Of a DNA stretch of 64,000 nt, positions 2,520 through 40,436 are shown piece after piece (position 1 is the first letter of the stretch; each line of letters opens with the position of its first letter). The stretch lies in sequence record MK327933.1; one strand, given 5' to 3'. A program made the translations under genes and the position numbers. Source of the DNA: Escherichia phage vB_EcoM_G2285. The notes beneath the pieces were generated by a model that did not search any database, was not told where the DNA came from, and saw only the letters and a list, made by a program, of their open reading frames with translations.

Positions 2520-3620
2520 TTACGCTGTGAAGATTTTATCCCACATCGCAACAACTGCATCTCGATTATACTTCTTCCATACTGCTTCAGCACGTTTAAC
2601 TCGAGCTTCGTATGTGTCAGTGAATTCTAATACAGCTTTTGTGTAAAGCGCAACTACTTCTTTCTTAGGAGTAGAGGAATCAATTTCTACACGCACAGTA
2701 TCTGGGTCGTATTCGAATGTCGCATGAGGATAATCCTTAAAAACTAACTGGATTACAGGGACACCTTTAGAGATGGCTTCAATAGAACTATTCTCTACTG
2801 TACCTGTGTCAGGACACGTATTAATAAGTGCTTTAGCTGTTTTAAGACGTTCCATGATTTCACTGTGTGGAGCATCAATAATAACAGGATATTTAGCTGG
2901 TGGTGCCCATTTACTAGGACAATAACCAATACCATTTTCGCCTAGTGCTTTAATCGCTTCAAGAGCAACATCAGTACGACGCATTTTAGTGTCATAACGT
3001 TGTGCACTAATAATCAGATCAGTCGCCGGAAGAACTTCAGGTTTCTCATTCAAACAAATAACCGGATAATCTTCGGCTTCAAACAACGGATTTGCTCGCC
3101 AATAATCATAATCGATTTTGTCAGTCAGACCTGAAGTCATATAACAATATTTGCGTTCAAATTCACGGAAGGCTTTAGTAGGAGCATAACTCTTACCACC
3201 ATTCTTATGAATTTGAATAGTCTGGTCCCAAATTTGAACAATGCCGCGAGATACCGGTTCAAATGGTGTTGCCATAAAATTCTTATGAACTTTAGAGAGA
3301 CCTGCGTCTTTAATTGCCTGAACGGTTAGTTTAGTCGGTTCCATAGTAACAACAAAATCGTATTCATGGATGCCGGCTAGTTCAACAATCTTACGAGCCA
3401 TAGTATAACTCATACCTAGACTGAATTTAGTCAGATGACCAACAGGATGGTGTGTAACTTTCCAGTCACCAAACGTGTCATTATCAAAGCCGATATAATC
3501 AATATCAGCACCGATGGACACAAGATATTTCAACACATTTAAATGTACTGCTTCAAGACCACCTTGTACACGGTCAGGATTAAATGGGACCGCACGAGAT
3601 GGGATAAACATAACTTTCAT
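2520..3620 (-). CDS. GT-B (GT4-like) glycosyltransferase, candidate DNA sugar transferase
   Basis: 366 aa; C-terminal E-x7-E-type motif TVENSSIEAISKGVPVI typical of GT4 donor-binding domain; N-terminal MKVMFIP..GG..A Rossmann start. Confidence 0.65.
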   Translation of the reverse strand: MKVMFIPSRAVPFNPDRVQGGLEAVHLNVLKYLVSIGADIDYIGFDNDTFGDWKVTHHPVGHLTKFSLGMSYTMARKIVELAGIHEYDFVVTMEPTKLTVQAIKDAGLSKVHKNFMATPFEPVSRGIVQIWDQTIQIHKNGGKSYAPTKAFREFERKYCYMTSGLTDKIDYDYWRANPLFEAEDYPVICLNEKPEVLPATDLIISAQRYDTKMRRTDVALEAIKALGENGIGYCPSKWAPPAKYPVIIDAPHSEIMERLKTAKALINTCPDTGTVENSSIEAISKGVPVIQLVFKDYPHATFEYDPDTVRVEIDSSTPKKEVVALYTKAVLEFTDTYEARVKRAEAVWKKYNRDAVVAMWDKIFTA

Positions 3621-3634
3621 AATTAAGCCTTATT

Positions 3635-3663
3635 AAAATTAAAATGAAGCTCCCGAAGGAGCT
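3635..3663 (-). terminator. rho-independent terminator (stem AGCTCC / GGAGCT, TTCG loop, U-rich tail)
   Basis: perfect palindrome agctcccgaaggagct overlapping gp39 stop, followed on minus strand by TCATTTTAATTTT. Confidence 0.5.
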
Positions 3664-5483
3664 TAGGACATCCATTCTTTACGAAGTTCTGAATCATCAC
3701 CCAACAACATTTCAAAGAGTTCTTTCCAATTTTCAGGAAGTTTAACTACGTCGTACACAGGGTTCTGAATCATTTCACGATACTCTGACTTTTCAAGGGA
3801 GCCTAATCCCTTGATGTATCGAATACTATGCTTAGGCAGTGTATCTTTAACTTCTTCATACTCAGCTACAGTATAAAACCATTTTTGAGTTTTGCCAATT
3901 TGTGCAATAATTACAGGTGTTTTAACAAAGCGAATACGTCCTTGTTCAAACAATTCGGGCCAATTACTAAAGAAAGCAAGCAAAGACGGATAAATACTTC
4001 CAAGACCGTCATGATCGGCATCGGTCATAATTGCAATATTACGATAGTTCGTATTCTCTGCCTTTTCACCAAGAATAAGACCTGTGATAGCACAGATATC
4101 AAAGAGCTCTTTGTTCTTCATCATATCAGCATATGACATACCCCAGCTATTCATCACCTTACCGCGTAATGGGAATCCGCCGTGTAGTTCACGGTCACGA
4201 ACATCAATGAGATAACCAATTGCCGAATCACCTTCTGTTAAGAACAATGTCGTATCTGCATCTTTACCACATTGGTTAGCTTTAATATGCTTATGAACCT
4301 TAGCTTTAGTTGCCTTTTTAGCTGCTTTAGTTTCTGCAGCCTTTTCTGCCGCCAATTTACGAGCTAATGCGGCTTCAATTATAGGCATTAAAACTGCTTC
4401 AGAATTCAAAATATTTTTTGCCAATTTTTTGGTATCTAATTTAATATGCGTCCGAATTTCGCCATAAGGACTTGTTAAACGCTCTTTGGTTTGGGAATCA
4501 AAACGAAGGTTCTTCATTCCACGAACGAACATTAAGAGAGTGAGACATTCCTTGATGCGCGCTTTAGTCACGTCGATTTTATATTTGCGTTTAATAGCCG
4601 GAATTAATTCTTCGCAAATGTCGTCCATCACACATTCAATGTGATGACCACCATTTTTAGTATGGATGTTATTCACATAAGTTAAATGACGGAAGCCATC
4701 TGGTGACCGACTAATGGCAATAGAGCATCCGTCTTGTTCTTGAATGATGGTCTCTTCATCAAATTGTTTAGCAAACTTCTTAAAGTTACCTTGAATCTTT
4801 TTGCCATTAAATTTAAATTCAATACCAGGATAAACGACTGCCAATGTTTGGAGCCGGTCTATAGTAATATCTTGGTATATTTTTTCAAATTGATTCATTT
4901 CAAAATGAGAGAAATCAGGAATAAACTCGACCTTAGTCCCGTTGTTTTTAGACGGCTTAGATTTCCAAGAAATATTATCAGCATTATTAGAACAATTAAC
5001 TGTCAATTCATTTTTACCATCTGAAGTAGTGCCAACAAAAGAGACAGAAAAAATATTTGTTAATGAAGAACCGACACCGTTTTGTCCACCCGTAACACGT
5101 TCTTTGTCGTCACCAAAGTTGCCACCGGCTTTTGTACGTGTCCACGCCGCAACTGGTCCTGGAATTTCTTCTCCTTCAGGAGTAATAACTGTTTCTTGAG
5201 GAATACCTCGACCATTATCTTCAACAGTCACTTTATTAGAATTTAAATCAATACTAACGGAAATTTTATTAGCATATTTGAAATTGGTTCGAATAGCTTC
5301 GTCTACCGAGTTGTCAATAATTTCATCAATTAATTTGAGAACACCTGCAACATATTTAACCTTTTTAAATTCACCAAATAGGAAACGTTCTTGTTCTTCA
5401 TTGGCAACACTTCCAATATACATGCCAGGACGCTTCAAACAATGCTCTTTATCAGATAGCATTTCAATTTTATTATCAATCAT
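3663..5483 (-). CDS. 39: DNA topoisomerase II large subunit (gene 39 with gene 60 fused, GyrB-like ATPase)
   Basis: HCLKRPGMYIGS GyrB-type motif; ~606 aa continuous ORF; start set at ATG 5483 (track start 5498 is TTG). Confidence 0.85.
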   Translation of the reverse strand: MIDNKIEMLSDKEHCLKRPGMYIGSVANEEQERFLFGEFKKVKYVAGVLKLIDEIIDNSVDEAIRTNFKYANKISVSIDLNSNKVTVEDNGRGIPQETVITPEGEEIPGPVAAWTRTKAGGNFGDDKERVTGGQNGVGSSLTNIFSVSFVGTTSDGKNELTVNCSNNADNISWKSKPSKNNGTKVEFIPDFSHFEMNQFEKIYQDITIDRLQTLAVVYPGIEFKFNGKKIQGNFKKFAKQFDEETIIQEQDGCSIAISRSPDGFRHLTYVNNIHTKNGGHHIECVMDDICEELIPAIKRKYKIDVTKARIKECLTLLMFVRGMKNLRFDSQTKERLTSPYGEIRTHIKLDTKKLAKNILNSEAVLMPIIEAALARKLAAEKAAETKAAKKATKAKVHKHIKANQCGKDADTTLFLTEGDSAIGYLIDVRDRELHGGFPLRGKVMNSWGMSYADMMKNKELFDICAITGLILGEKAENTNYRNIAIMTDADHDGLGSIYPSLLAFFSNWPELFEQGRIRFVKTPVIIAQIGKTQKWFYTVAEYEEVKDTLPKHSIRYIKGLGSLEKSEYREMIQNPVYDVVKLPENWKELFEMLLGDDSELRKEWMS

Positions 5484-29901: not shown

Positions 29902-30905
29902 TCAAAAATCGAACATATCGAACAGAGATGCTTTCTTCTCGTAATCGAGTTTCGCTGCTGATGTGAATCCTTCAAGTGGTTTAATAAATGTCTTCTCAAG
30001 GAGAACAGTGTAGTCCATCCAATGAAGTACATCGTCTTTAATTAAATCTGTGATTTCAGTACCAGAAGGCCATGCGATACATTTATCACCGAATGGGTTT
30101 CCTTCACGTAAAGGCAGAACATATACTTTTTCACCTTCTACAACTTGCGGTGCATCGATATTACCTTTGATAGCCCGGTTATACGTCAGAATTCCACGAA
30201 TATGGAACGGGCATTTAGGACCAGGGAATCCACCGACGTCATATTTAGCAATGTTATTCGCAGAAGATACCGACGCGATGCTAATATAATTCAATTGACG
30301 GAATTCTTTTTCAAACTCTTTAAAATATTCTTGTAATGATTCTTCGCCTTCCTGAAGCATACGACGAATACATTCCTTAAGAGCTTTCTGTACTGCTTTA
30401 GGAGTCGAAGATTTCTGAGTCTCTAGACCCATGATTTTAAGCTTAGGTTCAGCGTATCTGGTTCCTTCCATATCCCACACGTTTAATGCATAACGTTTCT
30501 TACCAGTCCAGAATCCACCAATACCTTTAGAACCAAGCGGAGGACCAGCAATAGCTTCTCGGTCCATGAACATCAAATGTTGTTTATTGTTCATGTATTC
30601 ACACATTTCACGGAAACCTCTATCAATAGCTGGTTCCATACGTTCACGTGCAAACTTATCTAAGAAGTCTACCCAATGGTTGGTATCACGGAATTTAGAT
30701 TCACCAACCTTATCAATAATTTTATCTGCAGATACGTAAATGGAGTCTGTATCACCATAAAGAACGAAAGCTTCACCTTCTGTACCACAAACTTCATTCA
30801 GATATTCATTAACTTTACGTTCAATCCACTGTAAAGCCATTTGACCAAATGTTGTGATTGCAGTAGCATTACGCAAATCGTAATAACGGAACCAAACGTT
30901 ACCCA
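29902..30905 (-). CDS. 43: DNA polymerase gp43, cistron B exon 2 (palm/thumb, YGDTDS)
   Basis: translation from GNVWFRYYDLRNATAIT through YGDTDS to ..FDMFDF matches recalled RB69/T4 gp43 C-terminus; 5' boundary set at inferred splice site. Confidence 0.85.
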
Positions 30906-31137
30906 CATTATGTTCGACTGAGGTCGTTAATCTCAGCCCGGAATTATATCCAGCTGCATGTCGCCATGCAGAGCAGACTATATCATCATCTTTATAGATG
31001 CTATGCGCTTCCACCCACTTGGGCGTACTCCTTTCGGATAGTCGTTGCACGTTCCTCATAGAGGCTTCGCTCAGGATTGTCTACTAGAGATGTCCCCTGA
31101 ATTCACATAGTTTAAAGTGCGCCGAGTTATTTGGTTA
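30906..31137 (-). ncRNA. group I intron (td/nrdD-like, ORF-less, 232 nt) in gene 43
   Basis: interrupts motif B codons (..LYGAL | GNVWF..); core elements CTCTAGTAGACAATCC and GATATAGTCTGCTCTGCATGGCGACATGCAGC; starts TAA after exon U, ends ..CATAATG. Confidence 0.75.
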
Positions 31138-31306
31138 ACGCACCATACAGACTATTAATAAGCAATTTACGGTTAATCTGAGCCGTATTACCTGCTACTT
31201 CAGCCAATTCGCAGTTTTTAAGATGTTGTTCTAAATCAGCTTTGCTTAAGGACTTGAGATAAGAAATTTCATCTTGTGAAAAGTCTTGAGTGTATGTTAA
31301 ATTCAT
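31138..31306 (-). CDS. 43: DNA polymerase gp43, cistron B exon 1 (motif B)
   Basis: ATG overlapping HEG stop (TAATG); encodes MNLTYTQDF..NTAQINRKLLINSLYGA, the polymerase K-x3-NSxYG region. Confidence 0.7.
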
Positions 31307-32127
31307 TATATTTTATTCCTACAGTTATCAAAGTGCCAACGTTTCATACCAGATAATATACCTTCTTTACCACAGTGCGGACACGTTGCTTTAATCTCTT
31401 TAGCTTTAGCCCAGTATTCTTTCTTAGAGTCTGAAAGGGCCTTATTATGGGCTTCCGAATTGGTTTTGCCTAATCTTGTTTTAACTATATTAGGATTCTC
31501 TGAAATTCTTTGCTTCATCCTAGAAGACTGTTTAGAACGTTGTTCTTTCGACCAGCCATCAGATAAAACTTTCTTTTGTTCTTCAGTTTTGGTTGTACCG
31601 AAGAGATGGGATTTATTTTTAGAATAGTATTCTTTGAGACCTATAGATTGTTTTAACGAAGTTTCAGCAGAATGCTTTGTTCCTATTTTATTTTTACTTG
31701 CTACAGCCCAATTGGCTGCTGCTATGGCTTTATACTTTTCAGGATTTTTGGCTATAGTGATTTTAATAGAATCTGAAACCTTTTTAGCAATCTCTTGGGA
31801 CTTCATAGGATTTGGTAGATTTAAAGAATTTACATAATCCCAACCGCCTTTACCACCAGGATTAAGATTATATGTATCATTTCTTTTTACAAAATCTTTA
31901 TCTACAATTTTAGCTTCAAGGGCATAAGCTTCATCTTCATTATCGAATACTTCCAAAATGGTCTTTTGGAGATTTTCTATACCGTATTTTTCAACGGCTG
32001 CTTTAACAACAGGTCCAGAACCGCGGTAAATATCGTTTTGATTAGACTCATCACACTTATGAACACCTACATAAATTTTACCATTAACGACATTAGTAAT
32101 TTGGTAAACAGTATAAACAGTTTTCAT
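31306..32127 (-). CDS. GIY-YIG homing endonuclease inserted within gene 43
   Basis: VYQITNVVNGKIYVGV GIY-YIG motif; C-terminal CPHCG..MKRWHFDNC zinc finger; start set at ATG with SD GGAGG. Confidence 0.75.
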   Translation of the reverse strand: MKTVYTVYQITNVVNGKIYVGVHKCDESNQNDIYRGSGPVVKAAVEKYGIENLQKTILEVFDNEDEAYALEAKIVDKDFVKRNDTYNLNPGGKGGWDYVNSLNLPNPMKSQEIAKKVSDSIKITIAKNPEKYKAIAAANWAVASKNKIGTKHSAETSLKQSIGLKEYYSKNKSHLFGTTKTEEQKKVLSDGWSKEQRSKQSSRMKQRISENPNIVKTRLGKTNSEAHNKALSDSKKEYWAKAKEIKATCPHCGKEGILSGMKRWHFDNCRNKI

Positions 32128-32153
32128 AATATCCTCCATTAGTTGATAAGACT

Positions 32154-32183
32154 ATAATACCACATCCTTGTGGTATTGTAAAC
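32154..32183 (-). promoter_or_regulatory. early-type promoter for the intragenic endonuclease
   Basis: minus GTTTAC-N18-TATTAT then AGTCTTATCAACTAATGGAGGATATTATG. Confidence 0.45.
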
Positions 32184-33703
32184 TATTTTGAAGCCAAAAT
32201 CTCTTTAATTATTTCAGCATTTCGCTGTGCAGCCAACATGTAGCGCTTATGTTCTTTACGCTGCAAGAATACCTTAGTGATTTCTGTTGGAATCACACCA
32301 TCACGGTCTTTATAATACATCATGCCGTTAGGAGAGCAACTGTACACATCTGAAGGACGTTCGGCGATTGCGTTAATATACTCATGCAGTGGAGCTACTT
32401 TAAACGTTCCTGCTATTGTTTCCGGGCTAATATTCACTTGGCGAATAATACTTGGATACAGAGATGTAAGGTCGAAACTCATTACATATTTGTATCGATT
32501 TGGAATAGGTTCCTTAACAAAAGCGCCAGGATAAGGTTGAACCGGGTGAGAACGACCTTGTGGAATCACCTTGTTCTGCTCTTTAAGGCTATTAAAAATA
32601 ATAGCATCCCATGTTTTAATTGGGCTAAACACAGATTGAATCTGTATCTTAGCATAATAACCCATGTCCAAGCTCAAGTTGATGAACTGACGCTTAGCAT
32701 CAATTTGCAATACACGATACACGTCGATAATGTTATAAGAAATATATCGTTGGTGATTGCTTTCACGAAGCTTAGAAATAGGGCCGTCATATTTCAGTTT
32801 ACCAACGTTCAATTCAAATTCTGAAATGTAATCCAGAGAATATGACGGTTGATTGGTAAAAGAGAATTTTTTGTAAAGGTCAATGTAATCAAGAACAGAG
32901 ATACCGAACAATGTAATGATTTCACGAGAACCATACATGTTTTCGATAACTTTAACACGAGTTTTACGATGTGGTGACAACCGTTTTGCTGTGGATTCGC
33001 CAAAAATATTCTTGATTCGGTTATACACATATGGAATATCAAATGACTCAACGTTCCATCCAGTCAAAATGACAGGAGTTTTCTGTTGCCAGAAGTTGAG
33101 ATATTCCATCAACAATTCTTTTTCGTTATCGAACGGCATATAAATGATTTTATCGATAATTTCAGATGGAACTTCATCACCGCCTTGTTCTTGAAGCTTA
33201 GCAGCGATTTCAATAGACCATTCTTCTACATTACCATACGGAGAATTCAATAGATCAAATACATAGAACCTGTCGTCAATTGAGTCATAATGGGTGATAG
33301 CATCAATCGGATGTTTTGCTTGTGACGGCTCAGGGAACCCATCCGGAGATGTTACTTCGATGTCGAAGTTAGCCACACGAATTTTTGTATGGTCGTATTT
33401 GATTTCATAGTTATAAGTGTCAGACAAATACGCCAATTTGAAATCGTCCATGCCAAGTGCTTCAAGTCCGATATCTTCCATGCGTTTAATCCATTGGGAG
33501 GCATCACGCATATTAGCGAACAGCTTACGAGTACACGGCTTACCGTAGATATCGAAATATTTCGTAGCCTGACTTTCTGGACAATGAGCAAACAGTGATG
33601 GTTTATATTCTACTTCACGAGTACGTTCACGGCCATTAGAATCGATGTAACGTTCAAAAATTGAATCACCAATCTGTTCAACCGTTAAGTAAAATTCTTT
33701 CAT
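32183..33703 (-). CDS. 43: DNA polymerase gp43, cistron A (N-terminal and 3'-5' exonuclease domains, motif A)
   Basis: 506 aa; MKEFYLTVEQIGDSIFERYID..FDIEV..YNIIDV..DLTSLYPSII matches recalled RB69 gp43 N-terminal half; ends at in-frame stop. Confidence 0.9.
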   Translation of the reverse strand: MKEFYLTVEQIGDSIFERYIDSNGRERTREVEYKPSLFAHCPESQATKYFDIYGKPCTRKLFANMRDASQWIKRMEDIGLEALGMDDFKLAYLSDTYNYEIKYDHTKIRVANFDIEVTSPDGFPEPSQAKHPIDAITHYDSIDDRFYVFDLLNSPYGNVEEWSIEIAAKLQEQGGDEVPSEIIDKIIYMPFDNEKELLMEYLNFWQQKTPVILTGWNVESFDIPYVYNRIKNIFGESTAKRLSPHRKTRVKVIENMYGSREIITLFGISVLDYIDLYKKFSFTNQPSYSLDYISEFELNVGKLKYDGPISKLRESNHQRYISYNIIDVYRVLQIDAKRQFINLSLDMGYYAKIQIQSVFSPIKTWDAIIFNSLKEQNKVIPQGRSHPVQPYPGAFVKEPIPNRYKYVMSFDLTSLYPSIIRQVNISPETIAGTFKVAPLHEYINAIAERPSDVYSCSPNGMMYYKDRDGVIPTEITKVFLQRKEHKRYMLAAQRNAEIIKEILASK

Positions 33704-37340: not shown

Positions 37341-37753
37341 GCAGCAACCATTTGCTTTTTAATAGCTTCAGGCAGTGATTCAATATATTCTGGAATTTTA
37401 GAAGCAACAATTTCGCCAGCTGCAATTAGTTGTTCGTCGGCATCAACACAGTAAAAATCTTCAAGGCGTTCAGAACCGTCTTTATCAAGAACGATTTTAG
37501 CACCTGCTTCGATAGAATCTTTATAGTGCTTACGCATCAAATGAATCCACATATCAGACACATCGTTATCAATAAAACCATAAATCATGAAACGAGTTTC
37601 TTGTGGAAGAGATTGAAGCTTTTTAGCACTTGCGTCATCACAATGCAGGACCCATGCTTTACGAACACGATTATGGTTATGTGGGTTAGCGTCAGTACGG
37701 ATAGAAGTAACTTTCAGATCAGCAGCAGTGAAACCTTTAGCAGTAGTAAACAT
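37337..37753 (-). CDS. hypothetical protein
   Basis: 138 aa ORF. Confidence 0.5.
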   Translation of the reverse strand: MFTTAKGFTAADLKVTSIRTDANPHNHNRVRKAWVLHCDDASAKKLQSLPQETRFMIYGFIDNDVSDMWIHLMRKHYKDSIEAGAKIVLDKDGSERLEDFYCVDADEQLIAAGEIVASKIPEYIESLPEAIKKQMVAA

Positions 37754-37765
37754 ATTATTTCTCTC

Positions 37766-37957
37766 TTATTCGTAGAAGTCGGTAACTGTCCATGCGGAAT
37801 TGCGATTAGACATTATTTTATTATACTCATCTTTAAAAGCAGATTCGAGCATTTGTTCAGTAACAATATGTTCTTCACCTGAAAACGTATTGGTCAAAAC
37901 ATATTTTTTAATTTCAGGGACAACAAGAAGATGTTGACCAGTTGAATACTCCGCCAT
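37766..37957 (-). CDS. hypothetical small protein
   Basis: 63 aa ORF. Confidence 0.4.
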   Translation of the reverse strand: MAEYSTGQHLLVVPEIKKYVLTNTFSGEEHIVTEQMLESAFKDEYNKIMSNRNSAWTVTDFYE

Positions 37958-38034
37958 TATAAATCTCCGAGATTAAAGCAATATAAATAGGTTTATCAAT
38001 TTATCTGTTGCTGTATCAAATAAGGATTTAGTAA

Positions 38035-38751
38035 ATGAATTATAACTCAATATACGAAAAGCTTATCACCAATGCTAAATCAAGAAGTTTAGATGGTTAT
38101 ACAGAACGTCATCACATTATACCACAATGTTTAGGTGGAAGTGATGATGCTTTAAACTTAGTAGACTTAACACCGGAAGAACATTATTTGGCACATCAAC
38201 TGTTGGTAAAAATCCATCCAGATAATGCCTCTTTAATATATGCTGCTCGTATGATGACTATCTCATCTCCTAAAGCAGATAGAAGCAAAAACAAATTATT
38301 TGGATGGCTTCGACGTAAGAATCAAGAAGTTCAAAAGAACAAAGAATTCACTGCTGAAACTCGTAAGAAAATGTCCGAGTCGGCAAAAAATAAACCAAAG
38401 ATTACATGTCCACACTGCGGTTTAACCGGCACTGAAGGAAACATGAGACGTTGGCATTTTGATAACTGTAAACAAGGCCCTACGCCTAAAATAGTAAAAC
38501 TTGATCAAGAAACAAAGGATAAAATAATTAAAACCATGGCCACGAAAATTTGGAAAGAAGATTCTTGCCCGTTTTGTGGCTTAACTACTAAGTTATCGGC
38601 GTTAAAGCCGCATATAAAATTCTGTAAATCAAATCCTAACAGAAAGAAAAAAGAGGACAAGAAAATTAAATGTCCTCATTGCGATAAAATAGGGATCCCT
38701 GCTAATATGCGTCGTTGGCATTTTGATAACTGTAAACATAAGCCTCATTAA
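38035..38751 (+). CDS. HNH homing endonuclease (Mob-like) with three zinc-finger repeats
   Basis: ERHHIIPQCLGGSDDALNLVDLTPEEHYLAH HNH motif; three CPHCG/CPFCG..MRRWHFDNCK repeats; plus strand among minus genes. Confidence 0.8.
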   Translation: MNYNSIYEKLITNAKSRSLDGYTERHHIIPQCLGGSDDALNLVDLTPEEHYLAHQLLVKIHPDNASLIYAARMMTISSPKADRSKNKLFGWLRRKNQEVQKNKEFTAETRKKMSESAKNKPKITCPHCGLTGTEGNMRRWHFDNCKQGPTPKIVKLDQETKDKIIKTMATKIWKEDSCPFCGLTTKLSALKPHIKFCKSNPNRKKKEDKKIKCPHCDKIGIPANMRRWHFDNCKHKPH

Positions 38752-40436
38752 GAGGCTTTCATTACAGTAAATCGTCCAACTTTGCTCATTTGCAAATGCT
38801 GTCCATAAGCTTGTGGGTCATGGTCTCTGTGACTAATTATAAACACGTTTGCATCGGTTAGAGAGTTAAGAATTGTTGAAATAGCTTTAATACCTTCAGA
38901 ATCAGTCGCGGAATCCATGACTTCGTCCATAATTAATGTATTGATTCTAACACCAGAGACCTTTTCAGCAATATCTCGCCATGTAAACAACAACGCGATA
39001 TCAATACGTGCTTTTTCACCTTGACTAAATGAAGCATAACTGAACTCTTCACGGCCACGTGATTTTATAGATTCGTTGAATTCTTCGTCAATAGAAAACA
39101 CGTAATCAGCTTCCATGATTTTAAGATAATGGTTAATCTGCTTGTTGAACAGAGGCACATATTTTTTAATGATAGCACCTTTAATACCAGAATCTTTTAA
39201 CATATCTGTAATAATACCACGATGGTATTTTTCAAGAACGATATCTGATTTTGTTTTAATGATTTTATCAAGTTCTTTTTGAAGCAAAGCTATCTCATCG
39301 GCATGGTCGATAAATTCTGCTGAGGCTTGCTCTATTGCAGCTTTAACTTTCTTAGCTTTATCAATAGTGGCAATCATTGCTTGTTTCTTGGTACGAATAT
39401 CAGATGCAAGGTCCTGTTTAGTCTTAACATTAGCTCTATATTCGTCCACTAGGACACTCAGATTATCTCTGTGACATGTAAGTTGCTCGAATGAGTGATT
39501 ACATTCATGAAGCTTATCGGTAATCTTAGAGACAATAGGATCACCCTGGTGCAACTGTGATGCACAAGTAGGACATGTGCCACCGTCATGATACATCTTA
39601 ATAACTTTGTTATATGAGTCGATTTTAGATTTAATCAAGAATGCTTCTTGTCCTATCTTGTTGAATGCCTCAGTAGGGTCTTCGTCAAGAACGATATTAA
39701 GTAGACGCTCGTTAGCTTCTTCAATTTCTGCTTTTAATGAACGAGCTTCTTTGGCTAGGTCGTCATACATATTCTGTAGACGCGCTACATTATCACCAGA
39801 TAATTTCTTTTGACGTTCGATATTCTCGTTATAAATCTTAATTTGTTGGATAACACCATCTTTCTTGGCATCGAGAACTTGTCCCTGGGAATTAAGTTCT
39901 CGAACTTGAGACTTATTGATTTTATCCATTTCAGCGAGTGTGCCGACTTCTAAAAGGTCTTCGACAAGTTTTCTACGAGCAGGGGTGCTAAGAGCCATGA
40001 AAGGGGTATACCCTGCCGTCCCAAGCACAACGATCTGTTTAAAAGACGCGTATGACATTCCGATGCTACGTTCAAATTCTTCTTGGAAGTCACGACTGCT
40101 GGCAGATTCATCAAGACGAACACCGTCAACGGAGATTTCGAAAATATTGGGCTTTTGGCCACGTCTAATGAAGTATTTTTTATCATCGAATTCCATCCAA
40201 AGCTCAACTAAGAGCTCTTTCTTGTTCGTGCTATTAATGATTTGTCCTTTCTTAACATCACGAAATGGTTTACCGAAAAGTCCGAAAGTAATGGCTTCTA
40301 ACATCGTAGATTTACCACCGCCATTTTTACCTGTGATTAAGGTCTTTTGGACTTTATCTAATTGGATATCGATAAAATTTTGCCCAACAGACATTATATT
40401 TTTATAACGAACACGATTTAATTTAAATGTTTTCAT
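38748..40436 (-). CDS. 46: recombination endonuclease subunit (Rad50/SbcC-like)
   Basis: 562 aa; Walker A GKNGGGKST, coiled-coil middle, C-terminal D-loop region LIMDEVMDS. Confidence 0.9.
   Translation of the reverse strand: MKTFKLNRVRYKNIMSVGQNFIDIQLDKVQKTLITGKNGGGKSTMLEAITFGLFGKPFRDVKKGQIINSTNKKELLVELWMEFDDKKYFIRRGQKPNIFEISVDGVRLDESASSRDFQEEFERSIGMSYASFKQIVVLGTAGYTPFMALSTPARRKLVEDLLEVGTLAEMDKINKSQVRELNSQGQVLDAKKDGVIQQIKIYNENIERQKKLSGDNVARLQNMYDDLAKEARSLKAEIEEANERLLNIVLDEDPTEAFNKIGQEAFLIKSKIDSYNKVIKMYHDGGTCPTCASQLHQGDPIVSKITDKLHECNHSFEQLTCHRDNLSVLVDEYRANVKTKQDLASDIRTKKQAMIATIDKAKKVKAAIEQASAEFIDHADEIALLQKELDKIIKTKSDIVLEKYHRGIITDMLKDSGIKGAIIKKYVPLFNKQINHYLKIMEADYVFSIDEEFNESIKSRGREEFSYASFSQGEKARIDIALLFTWRDIAEKVSGVRINTLIMDEVMDSATDSEGIKAISTILNSLTDANVFIISHRDHDPQAYGQHLQMSKVGRFTVMKAS

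Follow-up and report, generated by a model that had tools for sequence, protein, structure and literature searches.

Two homing endonucleases of Escherichia phage vB_EcoM_G2285 with unrelated nuclease domains end in the same kind of zinc finger, and comparison of their sequences identifies it as the finger of I-TevIII, the HNH endonuclease of the nrdB group I intron of phage RB3. The DNA analyzed is a stretch of 64,000 nucleotides (nt) from this phage (sequence record MK327933.1; here called the window), in which an HNH endonuclease gene stands between genes 45.2 and 46 and a GIY-YIG endonuclease gene splits the DNA polymerase gene 43. Homology, copy number, distribution, predicted fold, and presence or absence of the HNH gene were computed. 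The best explanation, to which we assign a probability of roughly 80%, is that both proteins are modular enzymes in which a homologous I-TevIII-type finger serves as a DNA-binding block, and that this block was not exchanged locally between the two genes.

The fingers stand out clearly from the rest of the window. When a six-frame translation of the whole 64 kb was searched with the regular expression C-x2-C-x8..16-H-x3-C, exactly four sites were found, three in the HNH open reading frame (ORF) and one in the GIY-YIG ORF. The number expected by chance is 0.07 (base shuffles) to 0.10 (residue shuffles), with a maximum of 1 to 2 sites in 200 shuffles. All four are C-terminal to the nuclease, at amino acids (aa) 125 to 233 of 238 in the HNH protein and aa 249 to 269 of 273 in the GIY-YIG protein. 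The gap between the Cys pair and the His is x12 in three of the four fingers and x11 in the middle HNH finger. Their consensus spans ∼25 residues, (V/I)-T-C-P-H-C-x-K-x-G-x4-M-K-R-W-H-F-D-N-C-K, in which the helix face (M, K/R, R, W, H, F, D, and N) is 78 to 100% conserved across fingers and only the hairpin tip is variable. An earlier, sequence-only reading of the window had placed both ORFs where we find them (38035-38751 on the plus strand; 31306-32127 on the minus strand, within an ORF that runs to 32139) and had described three repeats in the HNH protein, each with an MRRWHFDNCK-like tail, and the same unit at the end of the GIY-YIG protein in the split gene 43. Three fingers are indeed present in the HNH protein, but the MRRWHFDNCK tail is found only in fingers 1 and 3. 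The middle finger is divergent, with its ligands kept and the WHFDNC motif absent, and the third starts with CPHCD, not CPHCG. The GIY-YIG protein does end in one canonical finger, as had been described.

Is this likeness more than the generic CxxC...HxxxC spacing that is common in zinc-binding motifs? Convergence or chance might be argued from Pfam, which yields weak subthreshold hits to many unrelated zinc-ribbon models. However, 14 to 15 of the 21 residues are identical between the GIY-YIG finger and the HNH fingers, including the nonligand residues P, H, G, M, R, W, F, D, and N. BLASTP of the HNH protein against the GIY-YIG protein aligns the fingers only (18/32 identities, expectation value [E] 6e-11; 16/25 identities, E 2e-10), and in an hhalign comparison the families match over their entire C-terminal region, with NUMOD3-like repeats as well as finger (99.8%, E 1.2e-28, 103 columns). 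Together with four sites against ∼0.1 expected, these alignments refute the chance reading, to which we leave practically no probability. By sequence, the finger is common to the HNH and GIY-YIG enzymes through homology and is not a generic CxxC motif. The N-terminal, catalytic domains of the two families do not align in hhalign; they were rightly called unrelated, one being an HNH domain of the T4 MobE type and the other a GIY-YIG domain whose model matches the I-TevI domain 1mk0. The sequence-only reading implied that the finger was recently copied between the two genes by recombination or gene conversion. In its favor, the genes are at most 7 kb apart in one genome, and the last 21 finger-coding bases of the GIY-YIG copy differ from either HNH copy at one position only. 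However, that 21-base stretch encodes the near-invariant RWHFDNC, only 43 to 45 of all 63 bases are alike (68 to 71%), and the same codon is used in just 9 to 10 of the 14 to 15 identical residues. Furthermore, the GIY-YIG finger resembles the HNH fingers of its own genome no more than it does the median of 151 unrelated metagenomic fingers, of which 80 are at least as close and several reach 17 to 18 of 21 residues. Mean finger identity is 0.555 between the families compared to 0.54 and 0.59 within each; one finger has ∼21 informative columns, which is too little signal for phylogeny. Finally, in other phage genera the same finger already stands at the same position in the orthologs of either gene. 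For example, the same three fingers are found at the same 45.2|46 site in RB32ORF054w (Tequatrovirus) and Lw1 "mobE" (Pseudotevenvirus). A recent exchange within this genome is therefore very improbable. Because relatives in other phage genera have the same fingers at the same sites, both architectures are, on this sequence comparison, older than this genome. The domain shuffling proposed in the sequence-only reading thus holds in general, with strong evidence from the spread of the finger over many proteins and from the alignment of the C-terminal regions, but not the catalytic domains, of both families; it is not supported as an event among the endonucleases of this genome. The finger would instead be an old unit, now widely dispersed, to which several types of nuclease have been joined.

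The assignment to I-TevIII is also based on sequence alignment. I-TevIII, present in T4 as a truncated remnant, has two tandem C-terminal CX2CX12-13HX3C fingers, each with about one zinc bound (Robbins et al. 2007, PMC1865063). Over 74 residues, fingers 2 and 3 of the HNH protein are 38% identical to fingers I and II of I-TevIII (E 4e-11 for RB3 and 8e-12 for T4). Finger 2 is the counterpart of finger I (CDFCGHIGKGPGFYLKHNDRC, then NPNR) and finger 3 that of finger II, and the variant-then-canonical order and the NPNR linker are shared. The GIY-YIG finger aligns with finger II of T4 I-TevIII at E 1e-6. PHROG families with the finger are 655, 314, 27406, and 12324, all of phage homing endonucleases. 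The isolated GIY-YIG finger matches phrog_27406 and phrog_12324 ("endonuclease" and "intron-like DNA endonuclease"), which we take, going only by name and profile length (97 and 269), to be the I-TevIII families. In a six-frame scan of the T4 genome, the finger pattern was found only in the I-TevIII remnant (twice) and in nrdB.1, and there was none in I-TevI or in the Seg or Mob enzymes. When the window ORFs were searched by phmmer with five queries (the window's two catalytic domains, T4 MobE, T4 I-TevI, and RB3 I-TevIII), only the two known endonuclease ORFs were matched; other endonuclease types were not covered by these queries.

The finger is widespread outside this phage. When 1.84 billion protein cluster representatives were searched with a profile built from the four units of the window (E ≤ 0.001), at least 6,374 were matched, with 1 to 8 fingers each. 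By tblastn, the finger was present in 321 phage records, with hosts including Escherichia, Klebsiella, Salmonella, Vibrio, Aeromonas, and Cronobacter. The Pfam partners among 120 finger-bearing proteins were NUMOD3 (42), GIY-YIG (10), SegE_GIY-YIG (8), HNH (8), HNH_3 (6), and HNH_5 (2), which means that the finger is joined to GIY-YIG and to at least two HNH domain types. No Pfam model for the finger itself was found in these 120 proteins, and in Pfam and NCBIfam scans of the two window proteins no model covered it, the only signal being subthreshold zinc-ribbon noise. Within the HNH family the finger count is 1 to 7, and close orthologs keep the canonical-variant-canonical order at fixed positions. 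Among the best 120 GIY-YIG homologs, 63 end in one finger and 57 are without the strict H-x3-C motif; some of the latter have a close H-x2-C finger variant and the rest have other C-terminal modules. Two finger-bearing HNH homologs (P0138 and P0220) are named "DNA-directed RNA polymerase subunit RPC12/RpoP" and "inhibitor of DNA gyrase (YacG/DUF329)." These are probably misannotations because there is no domain model for the finger. Without a Pfam or NCBIfam model the finger goes unannotated, and a curated model would help with thousands of phage "hypothetical proteins."

All four fingers look alike in the AlphaFold2 models, with the Cys pair on a short beta-hairpin and the His and last Cys at the C-terminal end of a helix. 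The predicted fold is therefore beta-beta-alpha with the ligand spacing of C2H2 fingers and a Cys replacing the last His. These models were built with family alignments, and their mean predicted local distance difference test (pLDDT) scores were 93.2 for the HNH protein and 92.1 for the GIY-YIG protein. A sequence search of the PDB gave no match for the GIY-YIG protein, and for the HNH protein it gave only chance-level matches to the rubredoxin-like tail of LapB.

How these enzymes might work is suggested by homology to I-TevIII. Each would consist of an N-terminal nuclease (MobE-type HNH or Seg-type GIY-YIG) and a C-terminal DNA-binding string of NUMOD3-like helices and fingers. In each finger, the hairpin Cys pair and the helix-end His and Cys would hold one zinc ion; the fingers would anchor the enzyme on its target DNA, and the tethered nuclease would cut nearby. 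We infer zinc binding, DNA binding, and targets, the first two by homology to I-TevIII, where Cys-to-Ala mutants of either finger lost zinc and showed diminished DNA binding and cleavage (PMC1865063). The term DNA-binding module, used in the sequence-only reading, appears reasonable by the same homology. The likely target of the HNH enzyme would be the 45.2/46 junction of phages without the HNH gene, and that of the GIY-YIG enzyme would be the intron-free motif B site of gene 43; its homolog seg43(25) of Aeromonas phage 25 reportedly cleaves intron-free 43B sites. The fingers probably give generic affinity or positioning and not base-specific reading, because the helix face is near-invariant across thousands of proteins with presumably different targets. 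On this view, the enzymes would probably owe their specificity to the linkers, the NUMOD3 units, the variable tip of the hairpin, and how many units there are and in which order. The near-invariant helix face thus bears on the question of affinity versus specificity in these enzymes. T-even DNA is glucosylated in the major groove. I-TevIII footprints point to minor-groove contacts (PMC1865063), and together the two may be consistent with a binding mode unlike that of Zif268.

Several points weigh against this picture. The role given to the finger is carried over from I-TevIII, the one enzyme studied. In C2H2 fingers, specificity depends on helix positions that correspond to the near-invariant M and W here, which argues against a finger that itself reads bases. 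How the units are oriented relative to each other is unreliable in the models (predicted template modeling score [pTM] 0.45 to 0.61), and Foldseek of the finger region against the PDB gave no significant match, C2H2 arrays leading at E ≥ 0.06. The finger of I-TevI determines distance and is dispensable for DNA binding, and so the role of fingers is not uniform in this class (PMC1865063). The main rival takes up this last point and sees the fingers not as DNA binders but as structural spacers, rulers, or modules for contact between proteins. The I-TevI finger, which sets the distance from binding to cutting, is an example of a ruler, and the dimerization determinant of I-TevIII (residues 194 to 241) is beside its fingers (PMC1865063). 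A helix face (M, K/R, R, W, F, D, and N) that is invariant despite different targets would also point to a generic role, and finger number is variable, from 1 to 8. However, I-TevIII, the only studied enzyme with this finger type, showed reduced DNA binding when either finger was mutated. The I-TevI ligand pattern (C-x-C-x10-C-x2-C) is a different one, I-TevI having no site of the finger pattern in the T4 scan, and the fingers are basic and flanked by K/R. We consider this rival unlikely. There is also an outside chance, which we rate as doubtful, that the finger represents an uncatalogued large viral family of classical-type beta-beta-alpha fingers whose arrays read DNA modularly, with one finger per few bp. 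If it were true, the arrays of up to 8 fingers with an HNH or GIY-YIG nuclease would be nature's equivalent of engineered zinc-finger nucleases, with specificity set by the residues of the hairpin tip, and the arrays would be a new retargetable scaffold for DNA recognition that works on heavily modified phage DNA. We favor the I-TevIII-type DNA-binding block over both. The features of the two genes and their surroundings are collected in Table 1.

Table 1. Features of the finger-bearing endonuclease genes and of the split gene 43 (positions in the window)
Feature	Position	Strand	Basis or details
Free-standing HNH homing endonuclease gene, 238 aa	38035..38751	+	MobE-type HNH, one NUMOD3-like helix, three zinc fingers
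HNH catalytic domain, aa 1-100 (H26, H27, N41, H50)	38035..38334	+	Homolog alignment, model
NUMOD3-like helix, aa 102-118, NKEFTAETRKKMSESAK	38338..38388	+	Profile-profile alignment, model helix 107-118
Zinc finger 1, canonical, CPHCGLTGTEGNMRRWHFDNC (C125, C128, H141, C145)	38407..38469	+	Regular expression; hairpin 122-124/131-133, helix 134-144
Zinc finger 2, variant, CPFCGLTTKLSALKPHIKFC (C178, C181, H193, C197)	38566..38625	+	Regular expression; hairpin 175-177/184-186, helix 187-199
Zinc finger 3, canonical, CPHCDKIGIPANMRRWHFDNC (C213, C216, H229, C233)	38671..38733	+	Regular expression; strands 211-212/219-220, helix 222-232
Insertion with HNH gene between 45.2 and 46, 806 bp	37953..38758	+	Comparison with phage JK45
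Putative late-promoter consensus, TATAAATA	37982..37989	+	∼45 bp upstream of HNH start; read from sequence
AAGGA ribosome-binding site of HNH gene	38023-38027	+	Read from sequence
GIY-YIG homing endonuclease gene, 273 aa	31306..32127	-	Between cistrons 43A and 43B; homolog of Aeromonas phage 25 seg43(25)
GIY-YIG catalytic domain, aa 1-95	31843..32127	-	1mk0 match, conserved residues, sub-cutoff Pfam
GIY-YIG C-terminal finger, CPHCGKEGILSGMKRWHFDNC (C249, C252, H265, C269)	31321..31383	-	Regular expression; hairpin 246-248/255-257, helix 258-268
Cistron 43A, 506 aa, N-terminal DNA polymerase part	32183..33703	-	ORF; 96.9% identical to JS09 gene 43 nt 1-1503
Cistron 43B	29902..31306	-	Exon 1, 31138-31306; exon 2, 29902-30905
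ORF-less group I intron, 232 nt	30906..31137	-	Cistron 43B, motif B codons (SLYGAL|GN)

The surrounding region is 98 to 99.5% identical to T4-like coliphages of the Mosigvirus type, among them Escherichia phages 348Ecol098PP and ST0, and the neighbors of the HNH ORF are rpbA, 45.2, and gene 46. The HNH protein matches phrog_655 ("homing endonuclease") at E 1.2e-66 and is 58% identical to RB32ORF054w and 46% identical to Lw1 "mobE." Its N terminus is homologous to T4 MobE (phmmer E 6.8e-26). The four catalytic residues listed in Table 1 are invariant in 93 homologs and in the alignment with the I-TevIII, RB32, and Lw1 proteins, and the core of the model is beta-beta-alpha (strands 24 to 27 and 42 to 45, helix 47 to 60). 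No Pfam HNH model was above its gathering score in this protein, the best being HNH_5 with 13.5 compared to 27.5 bits. Similarly, the GIY-YIG protein was narrowly under the Pfam cutoffs (PF19835, 23.7 versus 25 bits; PF01541, 21.2 versus 22.6 bits), and homologs of it do pass the Pfam GIY-YIG cutoffs. We treat these sub-cutoff scores as insensitivity of the models to these subfamilies. In the profile-profile comparison, the GIY-YIG family has G-x-x-H-S-x-E-T-x-x-K-x-S repeats where the HNH protein has its NUMOD3-like helix; neither window protein had a Pfam NUMOD3 (PF07460) match at E ≤ 1.

As a mobile insert with presence/absence polymorphism, the HNH gene is typical of free-standing homing endonuclease genes. 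It is present in 13 of the 160 matching phage records, and most relatives are without it. In phage JK45, which lacks the homing endonuclease gene, the flanks align to 37400-37952 and 38759-39300, with a 67-bp spacer in place of the insert. The octamer upstream of the gene (TATAAATA) is one that we take to be the T4 late-promoter consensus. At the other end, the 3′ ends of the HNH ORF and the convergent gene 46 overlap by 4 nt (38748-38751), leaving no spacer between the insert and gene 46. Fingers 1 and 3 share an identical 26-nt run, CGTTGGCATTTTGATAACTGTAAACA (38446-38474 and 38710-38738, plus strand), the remainder of the units being only ∼60% identical. Codon bias on the invariant residues could explain this run, as could gene conversion within the gene.

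The start of the GIY-YIG gene is most likely the ATG at 32127, because a GGAGG ribosome-binding site is just upstream and close homologs begin with MKTVY. The protein matches phrog_314 at E 5.3e-46 and is 41 to 44% identical, over its full length including the finger, to the split-gene-43 enzymes of Aeromonas phages 25, phiAS4, and Aes508. The top PDB hit of its model in Foldseek was the I-TevI catalytic domain 1mk0 (probability 1.00, 94 columns, template modeling [TM] score 0.59 on the target, E 9e-3), and Y8, Y19, G21, E71, and N87 are invariant in 58 homologs. No coliphage record in the phage collection had this gene, and the best protein match, from Aeromonas phages, was 44%. Shortly before the GGAGG ribosome-binding site, the spacer upstream of the gene (32128-32182, minus strand) contains a perfect hairpin with an 8-bp stem, ATACCACA AGGA TGTGGTAT; the spacer also contains a putative sigma-70-like TTTACA-17-TATTAT. 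Both were read from the letters. At its other end, the GIY-YIG stop and the ATG of 43B exon 1 share one base in TAATG (31304-31308, minus strand), and translation of 43B could be coupled to that of the GIY-YIG gene.

Gene 43 is predicted to be interrupted twice, by the GIY-YIG gene between 43A and 43B and then by a group I intron ∼170 bp downstream. The intron matches Rfam RF00028 with 83.6 bits (gathering score 50; E 5e-21) at 30954-31170. Its boundaries were set by alignment to the uninterrupted gene 43 of JS09 and by the U(-1)/terminal-G rule, and they are uncertain by ∼2 nt. Positions 1643 to 1706 of JS09 gene 43 correspond to 31203-31140 at 81% identity and positions 1711 to 2712 to 30903-29902 at 97.1%. 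The 64-nt exon stretch between the GIY-YIG gene and the intron is therefore 81% identical to JS09 compared to 97% in the flanks. Because of this difference, and because the best match of the GIY-YIG gene is only 44%, the sequence suggests that the endonuclease gene came in from a divergent donor along with the exon piece and the intron. The same layout of endonuclease gene and intron was found in Aeromonas phage phiAS4 (intron at 3444-3690 of locus L011, confirmed by Rfam) and in a T4-like metagenome contig (locus L012, 3956-4169). The Dhakavirus Escherichia phage PSD2002 has the intron alone, without the endonuclease gene, at the same gene 43 site (locus L005, 2555-2757). The records of all three show two or three separate "DNA polymerase" coding sequences and no intron feature.

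Relatives of the HNH gene in T4 and elsewhere give another view of these modules. T4 has no gene at the 45.2|46 site. Its MobE has a catalytic domain homologous to the window HNH domain, but the protein is only 141 aa long and is without a finger. Directly downstream of mobE is nrdB.1, an 83-aa "hypothetical protein" (T4 139716-139967; locus L003, 6717-6968, minus strand) that consists of NUMOD3-like repeats and one canonical finger (CPHCGKKVNKGNALRWHYDKC) and aligns with the C-terminal region of the window HNH protein at E 3e-9. By sequence, T4 mobE and nrdB.1 look like a full-length MobE-type gene broken in two; nrdB.1 is unmentioned in the mobE paper. RB32ORF054w and Lw1 mobE, with the same site and the same three fingers as the window gene, are on the opposite strand.

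Compared to known systems, the gene 43 cassette is closest to that of Aeromonas phage 25, which, as far as it is described in the accounts that relay it, has seg43(25) and the intron 25.g43B in the same layout (Petrov, Ratnayaka and Karam 2010, J Mol Biol 395:457, via PMC2988022 and PMC2993671). In both, the GIY-YIG gene is between 43A and 43B, an ORF-less group I intron follows ∼170 bp downstream in 43B, and, according to the same accounts, a hairpin is just upstream of the ribosome-binding site of the endonuclease gene. The two differ in host genome, that of the window being a Mosigvirus-like coliphage. By sequence, the window cassette corresponds to the phage 25 system, with splicing and cleavage predicted.

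The finger itself can be compared to four kinds of unit. C2H2 fingers of the TFIIIA/Zif268 type have the same spacing, C-x2-C-x12-H-x3-(H/C), a hairpin and helix as predicted here, and tandem arrays, which reach 8 fingers in the present proteins; CTCF and other C2H2 arrays top the Foldseek list, though not significantly. The differences are the Cys as last ligand and a Pfam zf-C2H2 (PF00096) score of 14.6, below the cutoff of 25.2 bits. The modeled finger may work like a C2H2 finger, but we claim no family membership because the C2H2 matches in Foldseek were only at E ≥ 0.06. I-TevI, a T-even GIY-YIG homing endonuclease, likewise has a zinc finger between or after its nuclease and DNA-binding units, but that finger is a Cys4 site and has no sequence similarity to the window finger. 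With NUMODs, said to have been described by Sitbon and Pietrokovski in 2003 as DNA-binding modules common to GIY-YIG and HNH homing endonucleases, the finger shares the property of a short DNA-binding unit that recurs downstream of unrelated nuclease domains. It is not known to be one of NUMOD1 to NUMOD4. It differs from them in being without a Pfam or NCBIfam model, and Pfam NUMOD3 itself went undetected in both window proteins.

The closest likeness is to I-TevIII, with the same fingers in tandem, C-terminal to an HNH nuclease. However, I-TevIII is intron encoded, whereas the window HNH gene is free-standing; it has two fingers compared to three; and its HNH domain is of another subtype (EIHHKDGNRENN...) without significant alignment to the N-terminal domain of the window protein. 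The EIHHKDGNRENN sequence appears to resemble the Pfam HNH_3 type. The finger type (I-TevIII, 2007), the modules shared by GIY-YIG and HNH enzymes (NUMODs, 2003), and the gene 43 cassette (phage 25, 2010) are thus known, and the principle of recombined nuclease and DNA-binding units has already been stated (discussion in PMC1865063). The I-TevIII finger on GIY-YIG enzymes, or an account of its distribution, was not found in the searchable literature, where text searches for WHFDNC-like motif strings and for GIY-YIG with C2HC gave nothing relevant. The distribution found here means that this finger is not a peculiarity of one intron enzyme but is among the commonest building blocks of phage homing endonucleases.

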